From positions 608,001-672,000 of the forward strand of contig CAVTRN010000001.1 of assembly GCA_963737155.1 (NCBI GenBank): DNA of 64,000 nt, read 5' to 3'. Below the pieces are notes generated by a model, which saw only the letters and a program-made list of their open reading frames with translations, was not told the origin of the DNA and made no database searches. Shown piece by piece: positions 12,643 through 19,690 of the stretch (its first letter is position 1; every line of letters starts with the position of its first letter). Source of the stretch: Nitrospirota bacterium (lineage in GTDB: Bacteria; Nitrospirota; UBA9217). Position numbers and translations under genes: made by a program.

Positions 12643-15600
12643 ATGAGGAAACGATTTATTATACTTATGGTGCTGCAGGCAGCAGTCATGCTGCTTTCGA
12701 CGTGCGGCCAGAAGGGGCCGCTTCCGCCGGCCCCTACGACGCCGCCCACCGTAACCTCCATCACGCCCACCGATGGGGCGCTGAATGTCCCCGTAACTAT
12801 AAATAACGGGATCGTAATAACGTTCAGCAACGAAATGGATGCTTCGACCATCAATAACAAAACGATTACGCTTTATTACAACGGCGAGCAGGGTACGGTT
12901 CCCTTATCGGTTACCTACAGCGATGCGAACGGCAAGTATACCGCCGTTCTTATGCCATCAGTCGTATTGAATCCGAGTACCCTCTACACGGTAACAGTCG
13001 CCAATACCGTCATGGACACGACCGGAATCGCCATGTCCGCGGCATTCACCAGCTCCTTCATTACCGGGATGCCCATGCCGCTCAGGGTCATCGATGTCCA
13101 GCCCGAAGACCGGTCACAAAATGTAGGCACGACGACCGCTATTTCAATCATGTTCAGTCAGCCTATCGACCCATCTACGATTTCCTCGGACACGATAATA
13201 CTCAGTACGCCGACTGGAAACGTTCCGGGCAATGTTTCCTATAATGCGGCGACGGCCGCGGCCACGTTCGAACCCCTGAGTCCCCTTTCTCCCAATTCTA
13301 CCTACATCGTCAACGTCACAACCGGGGTGCAAACCGTGTCGGGCATTCCCATGACAGACGCCTTCGTAGCGAGTTTTGTGACCGGAGCAGGACCTGACAT
13401 TACAGCTCCCATGGTCATGTCGGCGCTCACCTTCCCGTCCACCACCGCCTCGGCGGCCGATGTGAACACGCCGATCAGTGTTACCTTCAGCGAACCGATG
13501 CTCCTGACGGGCCTCACGCCTTCGTCGATCATCGTCAGTAACGGCACGACCGGGATTCCCGGCACGATCATGTATGTCGACAATACGGTCATTTTCATGC
13601 CAAGCACGTCTCTTGCACCGTCGACCCTCTATACGGTCAGCATCCCCGAAGCGGTCAGCGATCTGTCCCTGAATTCGTTGTCGTCCGAATATACCTGGAG
13701 CTTTACTACAGAACCAGAGGCCTCGGACAGCGTCCCGCCTGCCGTCCTTTCCACCTTCCCGACCAGCTCTGCGGTCAATGTGCCAATCTACAACGACGTG
13801 GTCGCGCTCTGCAGTGAAGCCGTGCTTACGAGCTCGATCACGCCGACCACTACCTTTACGCTTGTCGACGGGAATGGAACAAGCATCCCCGGGTGGGTCA
13901 CTTCCAGCGGCGCCACGCTTGTATTTACGCCTACGCAGCCCCTGGCATACAGTACAAACTACGTTGCCGAAATTACCTCGCATGCCACCAACCTTGCGGG
14001 AAACCCGCTTGTCAGCAATACGTCCGGGGGGTATACCTGGTCCTTTACTACCGAGGCCATTGCTACGTTTACCATCACGGCATCCGCCGCGGGGGGGAAC
14101 GGCAGTATCACGCCATCCGGAGCGGTGATGCTGGTCTCGGGTGCGACGCAGACGTTCAGTATCACGCCGAATGCCGGCTACCAAATTGCAGACGTGCTGG
14201 TAGACGGCGTTTCGGTCGGCGCGGTGGCCTCCTACGCGTTCACGAACGTAACGGCGAACCACACGATCAGCGCCAGCTTCTCAATCATCACCAACACCAT
14301 AACGGCGACGGTATCCAGCGGGAGCGGTTCCATCAGCCCATCGGGCTCCATGACGGTGAATTATGGTGCAAGCCAGACCTTCACGTTCACCCCGGCTACG
14401 GGGTACTCTGTTGCCGGCGTGCTGGTGGACGGCGTTTCGGTCGGTGCGGTGACCTCCTATGCGTTCAATAATGTAACAACGAGCCACACCATATCGGTAA
14501 GTTTCTCGATTGACGCGTTTACGGTGACGTCGTCGGTCACCGGCAGTAATGGGACCATCAGCCCGTCGACCGCCCAGACGGTTACCTACAATGCGACGAC
14601 GGCATTCACTGTAACTCCGGCCACGGGATACACCGCCTCCGTGGGTGGTACTTGCGGCGGCACGCTGAACGGCACCACGTACACGACGAACGCAATCACG
14701 GCGAACTGCACGGTTGTGGCGAGCTTCTCGATCAACGGCAACACCATAACGGCTACGGTTTCCAGCGGAAGCGGGTCCATCAGCCCATCGGGCTCCGTGT
14801 CGGTGAATTATGGTGCAAGCCAGACATTCACGATCACCCCGGCTACGGGGTACTCTGTTGCCAGCGTGCTGGTGGATGGCGTTTCGGTCGGTGCGGTGTC
14901 CTCATACACGTTCACGGATGTTATAGCGAATCACACGATCAGCGCGAGTTTCTCGATCAACACGTTTACCGCGACGCCGTCGGTCATCGGCAGTAATGGG
15001 ACCATCAGCCCAGCGACTGCACAGACGGTTGACTACAATGCGACCACGGCATTCACCATTACGCCGGCTACGGGATACACCGGCACGGTGGGTGGTACCT
15101 GCGGCGGAACGCTGTCAGGGAGAAACTACACGACAAACGCAATTACGGCGAACTGCAGCGTCGTGGCAAGCTTCACGATCAACACCAACACCATAACGGC
15201 GACGGTTTCCAGCGGAAGCGGGTCTATCAGCCCAGCGGGCTCCGTGTCGGTGAATTATGGTGCAAGCCAGACATTCACGATCACCCCGGCTTCGGGGTAC
15301 TCTCTCGCCGAGGTGCTGGTAGATGGTGTCTTGGTCGGTGAGGTGACCTCCTATACGTTCGCGGATGTAACAGAGAACCACACGATCAGCGCGAACTTCT
15401 CAATCAACACCTATGCGGTAGCGCCGCTGACTGACGGGAGCGGGAACGGGACTATCAGCCCGAACACTCCACAGCCAGTGACCTATGGTAACACCACGCA
15501 GTTCACGATCACTCCGAACGCTGGATATAGCATTGCTTCGGTAGGCGGGACCTGCGGCGGCACGCTTAACGGAAACACTTACACGACGAATGAGATACTG

Positions 15601-15861
15601 GCGAACTGCACGGTTGTGGCGAACTTCTCGATAAACACCTATACGGTGTCGCCGTCGACTGACGGAGCAGGAACCATCAGCCCGAGCACTCCGCAGACAG
15701 TGCCGTATGATAATACTGTGATATTCACGGTTACTCCAACCACTGGATCCACCCCCACTATGGCTGGTACCTGCGGCGGCTCACTAGATCCAACTGGAAC
15801 TATGTATACCACTGATCCGATAACGGCGAACTGCACGGTTGTGGCGAACTTCTCGAGATAG
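12643..15861 (+). CDS. Large surface lipoprotein: four Big_5/SbsA-like Ig domains followed by eight tandem beta-repeat modules
   Basis: Signal peptide ending LLSTC; repeated P.V....P......V.....I...FSE.M...L...T.Y....FTT units; then G.ISP.G...V.YG..QTFT.TP..GY repeats. Confidence 0.85.
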   Translation: MRKRFIILMVLQAAVMLLSTCGQKGPLPPAPTTPPTVTSITPTDGALNVPVTINNGIVITFSNEMDASTINNKTITLYYNGEQGTVPLSVTYSDANGKYTAVLMPSVVLNPSTLYTVTVANTVMDTTGIAMSAAFTSSFITGMPMPLRVIDVQPEDRSQNVGTTTAISIMFSQPIDPSTISSDTIILSTPTGNVPGNVSYNAATAAATFEPLSPLSPNSTYIVNVTTGVQTVSGIPMTDAFVASFVTGAGPDITAPMVMSALTFPSTTASAADVNTPISVTFSEPMLLTGLTPSSIIVSNGTTGIPGTIMYVDNTVIFMPSTSLAPSTLYTVSIPEAVSDLSLNSLSSEYTWSFTTEPEASDSVPPAVLSTFPTSSAVNVPIYNDVVALCSEAVLTSSITPTTTFTLVDGNGTSIPGWVTSSGATLVFTPTQPLAYSTNYVAEITSHATNLAGNPLVSNTSGGYTWSFTTEAIATFTITASAAGGNGSITPSGAVMLVSGATQTFSITPNAGYQIADVLVDGVSVGAVASYAFTNVTANHTISASFSIITNTITATVSSGSGSISPSGSMTVNYGASQTFTFTPATGYSVAGVLVDGVSVGAVTSYAFNNVTTSHTISVSFSIDAFTVTSSVTGSNGTISPSTAQTVTYNATTAFTVTPATGYTASVGGTCGGTLNGTTYTTNAITANCTVVASFSINGNTITATVSSGSGSISPSGSVSVNYGASQTFTITPATGYSVASVLVDGVSVGAVSSYTFTDVIANHTISASFSINTFTATPSVIGSNGTISPATAQTVDYNATTAFTITPATGYTGTVGGTCGGTLSGRNYTTNAITANCSVVASFTINTNTITATVSSGSGSISPAGSVSVNYGASQTFTITPASGYSLAEVLVDGVLVGEVTSYTFADVTENHTISANFSINTYAVAPLTDGSGNGTISPNTPQPVTYGNTTQFTITPNAGYSIASVGGTCGGTLNGNTYTTNEILANCTVVANFSINTYTVSPSTDGAGTISPSTPQTVPYDNTVIFTVTPTTGSTPTMAGTCGGSLDPTGTMYTTDPITANCTVVANFSR
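14293..15410 (+). repeat. Intragenic tandem repeat with 447-bp (149 aa) period
   Basis: AACACCATAACGGC(G/T)ACGGT starts at 14293, 14740 and 15187. Confidence 0.9.
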
Positions 15862-16223
15862 CCTGTTTGACTTTGACATGACAGGGCACACCAGAGAGCA
15901 TGCCAGCCAAACTGGAATGCGGGAATAACGCATCACTACTCAACGATTACCGTCTCCTTCAACACAGCGTTAAACTGCATTTCCAAACCGGCCGAAATGG
16001 TGAGAAATACAGAAAGTTACATCGCATATTAAAAAAAGTCGACGTTAAAACTAATGATGCAGGTTTCTGGTGGCTTCACTGAGTACCGGGATTATCTTTG
16101 GTAGGTGGCAATTATCATTATGATAGTTCTCATGTGGAAAGTATGGACAGAGAGACTTAATTCTGAGCAAGAACTTAATTGTGTGCGGATACGGACAGGA
16201 CCATAGTGTCGCACGGTATAAAA

Positions 16224-16415
16224 GTACCAAAGTATGTCGTTTACGCCAAAATTTGCTACCACGACACAGAAGTGTGCTGTGAACAATAATTTGGTGTTTA
16301 TGGAAGCATAATTTGTCGCGTTAAGCTATATATATAATGCAAATAGATACAATTATTTACTTATTCAGAAGCAAAGATTGTCGCACTGTGTAATAAGGGA
16401 AGCATAGTTTGTCGA
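16224..16415 (+). promoter_or_regulatory. Cluster of four 17-bp direct repeats, putative regulator-binding sites
   Basis: GTACCAAAGTATGTCGT (16224), GAAGCATAATTTGTCGC (16303), GAAGCAAAGATTGTCGC (16368), GAAGCATAGTTTGTCGA (16399). Confidence 0.55.
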
Positions 16416-16488
16416 ATAATGTAGAAACTAGCTTGGAAATTAAAGTATTACAAAATTAGCAGCCTCACCAGCTACCAGGAAGAAGTTG

Positions 16489-16518
16489 TTGACAGAAATC
16501 CTAATCACAAAATACAAT
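16489..16518 (+). promoter_or_regulatory. Putative sigma70 promoter with no intact gene downstream
   Basis: TTGACA-N18-TACAAT. Confidence 0.45.
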
Positions 16519-16895
16519 GAAACAAAATAAATTCTGCACCTTCGCCAATATTATAATATACTCGACTTCACCTACTCTCTCGCAGTGGCGTTGACTATAA
16601 TTCAAAGCCGAATACGACGTGAAAATTGCATATGAACGGCTCATCTGAGAGGAGCGTTTTTCGTGACCTACTCGAGCCAAATGGTTAGAATCGTCGTCCG
16701 GTTTCACTTCGTTCGACTCGACTAACCGACAAGATCATCTCAAATTTATCTCCATATATTTTGTAGTGGGGTATGGGTTAAACCAGTATGGTTTGATTTC
16801 TTTGAACCCCAACGTTTTGTAGAGTCCTATGTCAGACTTCATGGAGTCTATAGTATCTAGCTCCATTATTTCATGCCTCATATTTCTCGCTTCTT

Positions 16896-17338
16896 GGATT
16901 AGTGCGGTGCATCAAACTCGTTTCTAAGCTCTTAGTCATCGCTTGGGCGCTCATAAAGAAGGAATTCTACGATCCGAAATATCTCAATGCGGAGGATCAA
17001 AATGTACAGAAAAAGGCAGAGCGTGAAGTATAAAACCTGATTTCGGCGAGAGGGCCCAGTCTACATAGCTGAGCGGTTTAGACCTCGTTAGATACAATGA
17101 AGGGCCTCTCGTTTGAACGATAGACTTTGGATAAGGTATTTTTGGTGGCCAGAGCGAAAGCGCGGTACACCGAATAGCAGTAAATATTAGAAATATCGTT
17201 CGTCTGGATGCGAGAGACTCGCCGATAAAAGCAATGACGGCAGAAATACCGAAAGGAGAACTGCGACATGTAAGCGACCTAAAGACATCCTATCGAATAG
17301 ACTCAAATCTTATCTGATTCTTGACTGGAGCGATATAG
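16896..17338 (+). mobile_element. IS110-family (IS1111-like layout) right-end relic: transposase tail plus about 300 bp non-coding end
   Basis: In-frame GLVRCIKLVSKLLVIAWALIKKEFYDPKYLN...stop at 17031-17033 resembles the IS110 tail (K...K.L.IAW.L.K....DP); the end reads CTTGACTGGAGCGATATAG, with an outward-facing -35 hexamer. Confidence 0.6.
17043..17225 (+). ncRNA. Putative bridge/seek-RNA-like structured RNA
   Basis: Stems CGAGAGGGCCC/GGGCCTCTCG, GAACGATA/TATCGTTC, TTGGTG/CACCGA with a GAAA cap, and long-range TCGGCGAG/CTCGCCGA; lies directly after a transposase tail. Confidence 0.5.
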
Positions 17339-17451
17339 TATTTATCAACAAGCACGCACCGCCAATTTTGTGACACGCTTAACATCTGCAACTGAGATAT
17401 AGATTACGTGCATAGTGTCCGTGCAGTCACACCATCTCAATAGCCCGATCT

Positions 17452-19500
17452 CTACTGGGCCTGGGCCCAGTCTATGGGAGGCCAGCTGGAGGGATGACAA
17501 CTTGGGCTGCAGCTTACGCCATTATAATTTAGAGTATCCAGCAGTGTTGCCGAAGCCGGCCCCTCCATGACAGATGTGTTAAGATTTGTAAAGTGATTGA
17601 CCGCAAGATAGACTGTGCTATGGCAGTCTGTACAACCAAAACCTTGAATATTGACATGGAAATTGTGTTGGCCGGAGTAAAAACTGTTATATTGCGGAGT
17701 TTGAGCAGCAGTCCCATAAGTATGACATGATGTGCACGAAGTATTTACATCGAGTGAGCCTGTCGTCCAATTTGGCGTGGTTTGACCACCATGACAGCTA
17801 ACATTGGAGCAGGTGTTATCGGAATTGTACACAGCGGTGCCAGTTTCTGCGTTGTAAACAGGGCTCATTATATTTACTTCTACAATGCCATCGAAATGAT
17901 ATATTGTGCCGCTTCCCGCTCCATTGTGACAGGTGTTACATCCATCAGGCAATGTGACTTGAGGTGCAAAGTGACCAGTAACAGTGTTATGAGCATCAGG
18001 CGTGGTTGGAGGAGAACCATGACAGGAAACGCAACCAGTTGCAGTAAACGGAAAAACTCCGTTAACATGGCAAGAATTGCAGCCCGGACCACTGTTGGTA
18101 ACTCCGGTGAGTGTCGATCCATGGCAGTAATTGTTCTGGCATGCCGTACTACTATTAGTGGCTACATAGGGCGAGTGATTGATTATAAGTTGTGACCCAG
18201 TACCCCAGGAAACCGGATGCACCGACGTTGCACCGCCAATATGACAGCTTGTACAGGAGGGCCCGCTTCCGATGACACCCATAAGAGATGACCCGTGGCA
18301 ATTTGCGTTCGCGCAGCCACTGGTCCCGTTTGTCTGCACATAGGAAGCGTGATCCAGGGCAATCGGAGTTGTCCAATCAGTCGGATGTCCCGATGTAGGG
18401 CCACCGATATGACAACTCGTGCAGGATGGACCACTGCCAGTGACACCAGTGAGTGACGATCCATGGCAACTTGCGTTCGCACACGCGTTGGTTGTATTCG
18501 CCGCGGCATATACCCCGTGTTGTGTCAAAATATCGCTGGCCCAGTCTGATGGATGCACTGACGCCACGCCGCCAAGATGACAGCTTGTGCAGGAGGGGCC
18601 ACTGTTAGTGACCCCAGTAAGCGTTGATCCGTGGCAGTAGTTGTTTTGGCAGGCGATATTGCCATTATCCGCAACATAGGACGCGTGATTCAGATCTACC
18701 TGCGTGCCGGTTCCCCAGGAAACTGGATGCACCGATATGACACCGCCAATATGACAGCTTGTACAGGAGGGGCCACTTCCAGCAACGCCGGTGAGGTTCG
18801 CTCCATGGCAATTCGCGTTGGCACAGCCGCTGGTTCCGTTCGCCTGCACATAGGAAGCGTGATCCAGGGCAATCGGAGTTGTCCAATCAGAGGGATGTCC
18901 TGATGTGGGTCCGCCGATATGACAGCTTGTGCAGGACGGACCACTGCCTGTTACGCCCCCCAGGTTCGTACCGTGGCAGACCATATTAGCACAGGCACTC
19001 GTTGTGTTCGCGGCAGCATAGACTCCATGCAGCGTCAAAATAGAACCGCTCCAGTCTGCAGGATGCACTGATGTCACTCCACCGAGATGACAGCTTGTAC
19101 AGGACGGGCCGCTGTTGGCGACTCCGGAAAGTGTTGATCCGTGGCAATAGGTGTTATGGCAGGAGGTATCGCTATTGGCCGTTACATAAGGTGCGTGGTT
19201 CAGGGCAATCTGGGACCCCGTACCCCAGGAAACCGGGTGCACCGATGTTGCGGTGCCGATATGGCAGCTGGTACAGGATACCTGCGAAATTCCCCCGGAT
19301 AAATCACTTCCATGGCATTGGGTACATGTGGTTAAATTTGTCGTTGCCGCCGTCATGTGCCCCGCTGGCAGCCATCCGGCTGGATGCGATCCGTCCGCAA
19401 ATGTCGAGGACTGGTTCTTTTGACTCGTGCATCCACAGGGAATCAGCAGTCCCAGCAATAATATCAGGCTTGTAATCTTGACTTTCGCTTCCTGTGACAT
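17452..19500 (-). CDS. Multiheme c-type cytochrome lipoprotein (CxxCH/CX4CH repeat type), 22 candidate heme sites
   Basis: Manual count: 13 CxxCH, 8 CX4CH, 1 CX3CH; GAGGT RBS before the ATG at 19500; hydrophobic signal ending IPCGC. Confidence 0.92.
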   Translation of the reverse strand: MSQEAKVKITSLILLLGLLIPCGCTSQKNQSSTFADGSHPAGWLPAGHMTAATTNLTTCTQCHGSDLSGGISQVSCTSCHIGTATSVHPVSWGTGSQIALNHAPYVTANSDTSCHNTYCHGSTLSGVANSGPSCTSCHLGGVTSVHPADWSGSILTLHGVYAAANTTSACANMVCHGTNLGGVTGSGPSCTSCHIGGPTSGHPSDWTTPIALDHASYVQANGTSGCANANCHGANLTGVAGSGPSCTSCHIGGVISVHPVSWGTGTQVDLNHASYVADNGNIACQNNYCHGSTLTGVTNSGPSCTSCHLGGVASVHPSDWASDILTQHGVYAAANTTNACANASCHGSSLTGVTGSGPSCTSCHIGGPTSGHPTDWTTPIALDHASYVQTNGTSGCANANCHGSSLMGVIGSGPSCTSCHIGGATSVHPVSWGTGSQLIINHSPYVATNSSTACQNNYCHGSTLTGVTNSGPGCNSCHVNGVFPFTATGCVSCHGSPPTTPDAHNTVTGHFAPQVTLPDGCNTCHNGAGSGTIYHFDGIVEVNIMSPVYNAETGTAVYNSDNTCSNVSCHGGQTTPNWTTGSLDVNTSCTSCHTYGTAAQTPQYNSFYSGQHNFHVNIQGFGCTDCHSTVYLAVNHFTNLNTSVMEGPASATLLDTLNYNGVSCSPSCHPSSWPPIDWAQAQ

Positions 19501-19520
19501 ATGCTGTACCTCGCAAGGAT

Positions 19521-19690
19521 TCATGGGGCGGCGGAGCACTTTTTCAGCAGTCTTTTAGCTACCTCTACATAAACTTCGAAGTCCGCTCGTCTTCTGATGC
19601 CGATAACTTCGACCACAACTTCTTGTTCAATAATCCGGTAGACAATGCATATCGATTTGTGCGCTGCATACGTTTTATAAACACCCCTAC
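19521..19690 (-). pseudogene. RelE/ParE-like toxin, C-terminal fragment
   Basis: GVYKTY...ICIVYRIIEQEVVVEVIGIRRRADFEVYVEVAKRL; N-terminal half and antitoxin not recognisable. Confidence 0.65.

Follow-up and report, generated by a model that had tools for sequence, protein, structure and literature searches.

A probable fossil bridge RNA at the decaying right end of an IS110-family insertion sequence in a Nitrospirota genome

A stretch of 64,000 nt from a Nitrospirota bacterium (assembly GCA_963737155.1, contig CAVTRN010000001.1, positions 608,001 to 672,000), here called the window, contains at 16911–17344 what is in all likelihood the decaying right-hand 434 bp of an IS110-family insertion sequence (IS) of about 1.76 kb, most likely inert and still at its original right junction. 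This relic is the 3' part of the element and consists of a transposase tail of about 40 codons, a 226-nt structured RNA (17040–17265) and a right end with a −35 box. Judged by comparison with relatives, the structured RNA is the family's bridge RNA, also termed seek RNA. A first-pass annotation, made from the letters of the window, had described an IS110 relic with a bridge-RNA-like structured end at 16896–17338. Every sequence feature named in it is present where it was placed. The relic does lie in that span, but its limits need correction: homology to relatives starts at 16911 or 16912, and the element ends at 17341, followed by a 2-nt core remnant at 17342–17343.

The transposase gene remnant (16911–17033, plus strand) was recognized by BLASTP and by DNA homology, and comprises the last 40 or so codons and a stop codon at 17031–17033. 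Its tail peptide, KLVSKLLVIAWALIKKEFYDPKYL, lies in a frame that is open over 16854–17030, of which only the part from about 16911 on has relatives. The DNA homology of the window begins at 16911 to a sister relic in the same genome (L002) and at 16912 to another copy (L047), which sets the left breakpoint at 16911/16912. The tail aligned with residues 398–434 of P0001, the 435-aa transposase of one intact copy, with 20 of 37 residues identical (pairwise BLASTP, E = 9e-10). As the first-pass annotation held, the recombinase gene is almost entirely gone, and with it about 1.3 kb of the element. Pfam searches with the 43-aa tail alone and with two neighbouring small open reading frames (ORFs) returned no family; the retained tail aligns past both transposase domains, and its IS110 membership rests on homology to the relatives. 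P0001 itself scores 152 bits with the NCBIfam model NF033542, 'IS110 family RNA-guided transposase', which has a cut-off of 140. It contains the domains PF01548 DEDD_Tnp_IS110 (E = 4.2e-19) and PF02371 Transposase_20 (E = 9.8e-19), and it matches the structure of the IS621 transposase, 8wt6, at E = 1.5e-15.

Intact relatives, which the first-pass annotation had proposed to look for, were found in same-genus genomes and in other phyla. In a set of 41 related genomes, the window's own (G000) counted in, nine contain matching DNA at 70–85% identity. In three of these, G011 (with no fewer than 15 matches), G018 and G012, an intact frame of 442–455 codons from stop to stop precedes the matching stretch. 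A scan of one genome per species added 77 loci that encode relatives with 54–100% protein identity; their record titles name Nitrospirota, Thermodesulfovibrionales, Smithella and other Desulfobacterota, Gammaproteobacteria and others. At 81% identity, L042 in G001 (oriented 675–1926) comes nearest to the window relic. This copy seems to retain a left-end motif, preceded by a match to its left guide (CATAGT), and a right end only about 1.25 kb away, and its right flank does not match its right guide; L042 may be an internally deleted, possibly non-autonomous derivative.

The boundaries of the intact element were fixed by identical copies in G011 with differing flanks, and its length is 1,763 bp with one GT counted. 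The left junction reads flank, GT, then TATATATGGATAGAGC, and the right junction reads CTTGACAGGAGCGTTATAGTAT, GT, then flank. GT was found at both junctions of multi-copy relatives, whose flanks are conserved, and by its sequence this is the core behaviour of IS110-type elements. The non-coding ends of an intact copy measure about 140 nt on the left and about 320 nt on the right, and the RNA begins some 20–90 nt past the protein match. A comparison of the first with the last 72 nt of an intact copy gave no inverted repeat of 7 nt or more; the longest exact inverted match has 6 nt and lies at non-equivalent positions. A short ATA...TAT symmetry flanks the junction (ATA-GTAT-GT-TATA-TAT). When the right end of intact copies is joined to the left end, the sequence reads TTGACA, 17 nt, TATATA across the junction, which would form a classical junction promoter. 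The −35 box noted by the first-pass annotation is a conserved one, and in intact copies lies 17 nt from the left-end TATATA after circularization. In the relic, the A+T-rich spacer and right end occupy 17266–17341 (plus strand), with the −35 box TTGACT at 17321–17326, ATATAG at 17333–17338 and the terminus TATAGTAT at 17334–17341. The right-end sequence CTTGACAGGAGCG(A/T)TATAGTAT is conserved among the genus-level copies.

The structured RNA was defined by comparison. Thirteen genus-level copies of the non-coding stretch, the window included, were aligned (A1) and folded with RNAalifold, and a covariance model (R1) was built on A1. The fold has a long-range closing helix that encloses two stem-loops, each with a large internal loop, together with a helix of CUCUCG and a downstream GCGAGAG that brackets loop 2, and a small terminal hairpin. 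R1 was run on 54 sources: 44 of the 77 loci of the species scan, eight loci of the related-genome set, L002 and the window. Loci that duplicated the downstream sequence of another, or that were without the 3' end of the gene, were excluded. The covariance model, which had been put forward as a check, gave one match in each of the 54 sources, at 46–257 bits. In the 44 loci oriented by their protein, the match was on the plus strand just downstream of the protein match, down to 54% protein identity. The window copy, at 17040–17265 on the plus strand, scored 237 bits over model positions 1–227, a score inflated by the presence of the window among the 13 model seeds.

Covariation was scored on 45 distinct sequences in the R1-based alignment A2, which is fitted to the model structure and hence favours it. 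In this alignment 93.7% of pair cells are paired, against 30.8–44.5% when the partners are slid by 1–3 columns, and the covariation score of 0.377 falls to 0.081 or less with slid partners. Compensatory changes on both sides are present at 33 of the 51 pairs. A structure-free MAFFT alignment folded de novo with RNAalifold also contained compensatory changes at 19 of 36 predicted pairs. This check used 35 of the 45 sequences, leaving out nine from loci without a full-length protein match as well as L122 and L125, which have long insertions in their RNA matches. Stem-loop 1 reappeared in it together with the inner hairpin, as did the pairing of CUCUCG with its downstream partner and the two stems of stem-loop 2. 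The long-range helix is missing from this prediction, because the sequence ends align poorly. Thermodynamic stability alone is a weak argument: the window RNA has a z-score of −1.93, with 6 of 200 shuffles folding as well, and an intact relative has one of −1.36. The decisive evidence for a structured RNA is the comparison among copies. An Rfam scan of 15800–17600 with E up to 10 matched no family, and an R2-element match on the opposite strand was set aside as chance (13.9 bits against a gathering score of 38).

In the window, the long-range closing helix pairs 17043–17050, TCGGCGAG, with 17218–17225, CTCGCCGA; all eight of its pairs changed on both sides and 92.1% of cells are paired. The pairing had been noticed before and does exist, but it had been called 'alternative', whereas it is the best-supported helix of the fold. 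Stem-loop 1, the putative target-binding loop, spans 17054–17105 and has an outer stem of GCCC (17054–17057) with GGGC (17102–17105). Its inner hairpin joins 17070–17074 to 17083–17087, and in the window C17074 faces C17083, a broken pair. The longer closing stem previously drawn for this loop, CGAGAGGGCCC (17047–17057) with GGGCCTCTCG (17102–17111), holds for GCCC/GGGC and for the inner CGAGAG pairs, and is weakest at the outer two. Stem-loop 2, the putative donor-binding loop, spans 17115–17201, with 14 of 22 pairs changed on both sides and a GC-GAAA-GC cap at 17154–17161. Its predicted closing stem, GAACGATA (17115–17122) with TATCGTTC (17194–17201), is supported by covariation. The loop holds GGTAT at 17135–17139 as the candidate left donor guide and GTAAA at 17180–17184 as the candidate right donor guide (consensus ATAAC). 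The small terminal hairpin (17238–17251; CGGC, 6-nt loop, ACCG) changed on both sides at all five pairs and has one C-A mismatch in the window (pair 313–341).

The segment CUCUCG (17106–17111) is complementary to two others, and pairs either with the upstream GAGAG at 17048–17052 or with the downstream GCGAGAG at 17210–17216. With the downstream partner, 94.6% of cells are paired, and pair 98–271 is GC in 23 sequences and AU in 19. With the upstream partner, 83.8% are paired, and the inner three pairs hold in 42 of 43–45 sequences. The outer two pairs, C17047–G17111 and G17048–C17110, are the weakest, being unpaired in 16 and 13 of the 45 sequences respectively. Column 94 of CUCUCG covaries with both GAGAG partners, and both stay complementary throughout the family. 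The two pairings may mark alternative conformations, a short form with the target loop only and a long form with both loops. Short and long forms of seek RNA have been reported for other elements (PMC11187229).

The loops of the relatives correspond to the sites in which the elements lie. In loop 1, the 5' strand ends in GT and repeats the left flank, while the 3' strand, with AC at its end, reads as the right flank in reverse complement. Over 30 distinct cognate pairs, left guides agreed with their own left flanks at a mean of 5.57 of 7 positions, and the 852 non-cognate pairs gave 2.92 of 7. For right guides and right flanks, the means were 4.42 of 6 over 38 distinct cognate pairs and 2.43 of 6 over the 1342 non-cognate ones. 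The ends were defined for these counts by a motif, which 49 of the 54 sequences have at the right end and 34 have at the left. A single pair, whose right guide is 7 nt long, was excluded, and L125, which gave two motif hits, entered with the better one. The pairs are not fully independent, as related elements share targets. Examples for the left guide are RNA CCACAGTTGT with flank CCACAGTT-GT and RNA AATAAGCGT with flank AATAAGC-GT; examples for the right guide are RNA TCACCTAC with flank GT-AGGTGA and RNA TGGAGAAC with flank GT-TCTCCA. In the published bridge-RNA scheme, the left guide pairs with the bottom strand and the right guide with the top strand, each including the core (PMC11208160). 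The arrangement read from loop 1 matches this scheme. The stems that covary and the loop 1 guides that match insertion flanks in relatives together uphold the earlier description of the region as bridge-RNA-like.

Of the loop 2 variants, GGTAT is found with the right end AGTAT, GGGAT with AGGAT and GGGATT with AGGATT, and the 3' strand of the loop, ATAAC or GTAAC, faces the left-end start GTTAT. These patterns are consistent with a donor-binding loop. In intact members, the bridge RNA would be encoded 3' of the recombinase gene and probably co-transcribed with it, by analogy with IS621 and ISEc21. Loop 2 would hold the element's own joined ends, and the DEDD recombinase would exchange strands at the GT core. 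Excision would join the −35 box of the right end to the TATATA of the left end, 17 nt apart, to give the junction promoter. A side observation concerns the targets of the family in G011, where the sites of L046, L052, L056, L058, L060 and L061 resemble the centre of an imperfect palindromic repeat (left flank GTGCA...T.CAAC...GTAT, right flank ...GTTGAAG.ATGCA, about 50 nt out). The relic's family seems to target repeats like those known as repetitive extragenic palindromes (REPs), as many IS110 elements do.

The relic retains both target guides of loop 1. The left guide, CTACATA, is followed by the core position (17061–17069, plus strand), where the window has GC and the family GT; the relic's own left flank has been lost. 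The right guide, TTAGATAC (17088–17095, plus strand), ends in the core complement AC, and in relatives its reverse complement is the right flank. At the right junction (17342–17349), where homology to relatives stops at 17341–17344, a core remnant TT (17342–17343; GT in intact copies) is followed by the right target half ATCAAC. The guide predicts GT-ATCTAA and the window reads TT-ATCAAC. Four of the six flank positions match, so the relic is most likely still at its original insertion site, joined to its original right flank. At the same place, the truncated copy L051 in G001 reads GT-ATCTAC. L051 was considered as an orthologous locus because its homology passes the element end by 8 nt, but its 1.5-kb flanks are unlike the window; given these unmatched flanks, the shared bases are put down to a similar target.

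The window copy differs from its relatives at core and near-invariant positions of the RNA. Near-invariant columns, conserved at 93% or more, number 63 and were defined on 36 distinct sequences, which are the 45 minus the nine from loci without a full-length protein match. The window departs from the consensus at six of the 63, and 32 of the 36 reference sequences depart at none or one. The core of the left target guide has changed from GT to GC at 17068–17069 (T to C, column 40), and the core complement of the right donor guide from AC to AA at 17183–17184 (C to A at 17184, column 222). A change of G to C at 17074 breaks the inner-hairpin pair of columns 45–68. The genome holds two further relics. 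L002 (contig C2 of G000, 2631726–2632216) is 73% identical to the window, has a longer transposase tail and has 15 of 51 pairs broken. The third (C1:138878–139426, minus strand) is more diverged and was met by nhmmer with a profile of the two best copies; the same profile also matched, weakly, right-end and flank sequence at several further loci of G000. With scores of 237, 168.8 and 68.9 bits, the three RNA copies form by sequence a gradient of decay.

The recombinase that would have used these RNAs is also in fragments. A tblastn search of G000 with P0001 found no intact cognate recombinase, and returned only fragments, at least seven N-terminal and two C-terminal; the window tail, a third C-terminal piece, is so short that it falls below the threshold used. 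A near-full cognate copy at C1:827972–829218 is split over two reading frames, contains a TAG stop, diverges after residue 416 and is without a downstream RNA. Other IS110-family genes of G000 are at most 26% identical to P0001 or were undetected by tblastn. With mutations at core and conserved positions, and without a cognate recombinase in G000, the window copy is most likely inert. A different IS110-family element is present in the genome in six identical copies with an open frame of 403 aa and the same score (C1:842219, C2:172223, C2:233110, C2:498685, C2:925624 and C2:2321229). This other element is probably active in G000 and, as far as tblastn can tell, unrelated to the family of the relic.

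The left side of the relic records how the rest of the element may have been lost. A truncated pseudogene of a GNAT acetyltransferase lies at 16567–16911 on the minus strand, with 75% identity over 345 bp to C2:83102–83442 of the same genome, where the ORF of the region matches Pfam Acetyltransf_1 at E = 4.4e-11. The homology of this fragment stops at 16911, the exact base where the IS tail starts. As both are cut at the same base, a single rearrangement probably fused the acetyltransferase fragment to the IS tail. The same event would have deleted the left 1.3 kb or so of the element, that is, its left end and nearly the whole recombinase gene, and joined the remainder to the truncated acetyltransferase gene. 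An orthologous or empty site was sought with 17345–18600 against five same-genus genomes, and the intergenic region was not conserved in them. Matches in these genomes start only inside the repetitive cytochrome gene to the right of the relic, at 68–75% identity. The insertion cannot be dated from this comparison, as the intergenic region is unconserved in the five genomes.

Several points weigh against the reading of the relic as an inert IS end, in addition to the inflated model score and the alignment that favours its own structure. The fold is nearly whole, with only 2 of 51 pairs broken, so a correctly shaped RNA might still be produced. A strong promoter-like site (TTGACA, 18 nt, TACAAT; 11 of 12 positions) is present on the plus strand at 16489–16518, inside a dispersed repeat about 530 nt upstream, and no plus-strand terminator-like site was found in the scanned region 15862–17460. 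Given these two features, read-through transcription of the relic is possible. For the correspondence of loop 2 to the element ends there are only about two independent co-changes, and the relic L059 departs from it. The single-deletion history has no orthologous locus for comparison, and we infer both it and the inertness of the copy from sequence only. An outward promoter made from the relic's own −35 box was also considered and rejected, since no −10 box lies at 16–18 nt from it and the promoter scan listed none.

The same observations bear on the first-pass suggestion of an orphan guide. Spelled out, this reading has the relic transcribed, loaded in trans by a resident or incoming recombinase and able to direct recombination at sites set by its loops. 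The near-intact fold and the upstream promoter-like site on the same strand, with no plus-strand terminator-like site in the scanned region, speak for it. So does the report that seek RNAs supplied in trans support transposition and that similar seek RNAs serve transposases only 46% identical (PMC11187229). It is nevertheless a distinctly improbable reading, and the changes in the RNA argue against it. In IS621, the core takes part in all four pairings, and guide mismatches are poorly tolerated (PMC11208160); the relic has GC for GT at the core of its left target guide and AA for AC at the core complement of its right donor guide, and six of the 63 near-invariant columns are changed in all. 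The genome has no intact cognate recombinase, and its other IS110-family genes are distant from P0001. The 15-nt target predicted from the relic is not enriched in G000, with 55 sites at up to three mismatches against 67–182 for ten shuffled patterns. The two sister relics are progressively more decayed. Preferential retention of the RNA-bearing 3' end was looked for and rejected, as the genome has no fewer N-terminal than C-terminal fragments of the family's transposase. The claim of a guide acting in trans thus found no support here, and the relic is better read as a dead end of the element.

A bolder idea is that the relic RNAs of such genomes are still transcribed and loadable, and that an incoming recombinase of the family would use them in trans as extra guides. 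There is a slim chance that this is so. If true, the extra guides could send insertions or rearrangements to the sites of an extinct element lineage, and the 3' relics of the genome would form a standing guide library. A milder version at the level of the family is that its clade moved the bridge RNA to the 3' end independently of IS1111, and that the CUCUCG pairing switches the RNA between short and long forms. None of the papers retrieved on orphan bridge RNAs of IS110 elements describes, by its title and abstract, a relic bridge RNA that acts in trans.

A role for the host is hard to credit. In this reading, the hairpin at 17238–17251, followed on the minus strand by a T-rich run, could help to terminate the convergent cytochrome gene, or the region would encode an unrelated regulatory RNA. 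A consensus scan does list a minus-strand terminator-like site at 17251–17238, about 200 nt past the end of the cytochrome gene (17452). However, the hairpin stem has only five pairs, and two such sites were found where 1.3 are expected by chance. The IS homology accounts for the whole 434 bp, the RNA matches no Rfam family, and no plus-strand gene lies downstream for it to regulate.

The least credible reading is that the relic is a non-autonomous miniature element that keeps both ends and is moved by a full-length copy, comparable with the ssr9 module of ISPpu9; self-excising orphan copies of this IS110-linked small-RNA module are documented for ISPpu9 (PMC12288879), and L042 seems to retain both ends, but the window copy is without a left end, its homology ends at 16911 inside the tail against an unrelated acetyltransferase fragment, its right-junction core is mutated to TT, and the three relics of G000 are cut at different points of the gene, unlike copies of a common module. 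A left end was sought 1,250–1,900 nt upstream of the RNA and gave only a 7 of 9 guide match, with no left-end motif after it; the first 1.2 kb or so upstream was not scanned for the motif.

The relic's family shares many features with IS621. Its recombinase has the same combination of a DEDD and a Tnp domain, and its RNA has two internal loops. The core of the family is GT and that of IS621 is CT. Both are without long inverted repeats, and in both a short ATA...TAT symmetry surrounds the donor. A 2-nt core inside the guides is described for IS621 (PMC11208160) and is shared by the family. A second loop that matches the joined ends and a promoter rebuilt at the circle junction, also described for IS621 (PMC11208160), have candidate counterparts in it. 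The two differ in the place of the RNA, which is in the right end 3' of the gene in the relic's family and in the left end in IS621. The family recombinase is also longer, at 435 aa against 328 aa in the solved IS621 chain. In addition, the family has a long-range helix around its two stem-loops and another helix that flanks loop 2, unlike IS621. Compared with IS621, the family is known from sequence alone.

The first-pass annotation had likened the relic to IS1111-type elements. The IS1111 group (ISEc11, ISPa11 and ISKpn4) has a long non-coding region with the guide RNA 3' of the transposase gene, inserts site-specifically and forms a junction promoter on circularization (PMC11187229), and the relic's family resembles it in these respects. 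The position of the guide RNA downstream of the gene fits IS1111, but it is the only one of four distinguishing traits that does. The family is without the subterminal inverted repeat of 7–17 bp (best match 6 nt), its transposase has 435 aa against 330–350 aa in the group, and the bottom-strand guide lies 5' of the top-strand guide, unlike the order in all the IS1111 members tested in that report (PMC11187229). The IS1111 label is therefore not retained. The guide order is that of IS110: in the guide RNA of ISEc21, as in the relic's family, the bottom-strand match is 5' of the top-strand match and the target is linear, and IS621 shares this order (PMC11187229). ISEc21 differs from the family in having its non-coding region upstream of the gene and a transposase of 358 aa (PMC11187229). 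Some members of the IS110 family have a downstream non-coding region (PMC11187229), and the relic's family fits this little-described IS110 group.

A further comparison is with ISPpu9 and its ssr9 module (MITEPpu9), in which a small-RNA gene is also found 3' of an IS110 transposase gene and extra copies occur without the gene (PMC12288879). In contrast to the RNA of the relic's family, ssr9 has its own pair of recombination ends, self-excises and is dispensable for transposition, and the bridge RNA of ISPpu9 lies upstream of the gene (PMC12288879). The copies of G000 that hold only the RNA are also unlike ssr9 copies, as they arose by truncation at different breakpoints and have no left end.

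In itself the relic is unremarkable. It is most likely the dead end of a transposon, set in an intergenic region of mosaic make-up, and its annotation as a gene or a regulatory RNA is unwarranted. The family is of more interest, as a clean, previously unmodelled case of a 3'-encoded bridge RNA with the IS110 guide order. Trees based on ISfinder in the supplements of PMC11187229 and PMC11208160 may already place IS110 elements with a downstream non-coding region, which would limit the novelty. The family combines a long IS110-type recombinase, a bridge RNA at the 3' end, the IS110 guide order and a GT core, and is phylogenetically wide. The sequence gives its guides, of about 7+2 and 6+2 nt, directly, and the covariance model could annotate the RNA and predict insertion specificity copy by copy. 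The family might also supply programmable recombinases, and it is a natural setting in which to ask how the guide RNA has come to lie at one end or the other of such elements.

The relic lies in a gap of 1.6 kb between a 1072-aa gene (12643–15861, plus strand) and a 695-aa gene (17452–19539, minus strand). From 15862 onward, this gap is a mosaic of unlike pieces. The part at 15862–16268 is made of pieces that recur elsewhere in G000; within it, 15866–16088 is 81% identical to C1:699452–699678 and 16154–16268 is 87% identical to C1:221523–221640. The segment 16476–16587 is one copy of a dispersed repeat of about 110 bp, with some 18 further matches in G000 at 72–88% identity. This repeat could be a miniature inverted-repeat transposable element (MITE), an IS end or a REP-like unit, and another copy of it sits directly past the right end of the third relic, at C1:138812–138890. 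The 1072-aa product appears to be a surface-type protein and is highly repetitive, with repeated modules that look Ig-like. The 695-aa product has repeated modules with CxxCH motifs and is by appearance a multihaem cytochrome, whose gene is matched in congeners in several shifted registers.

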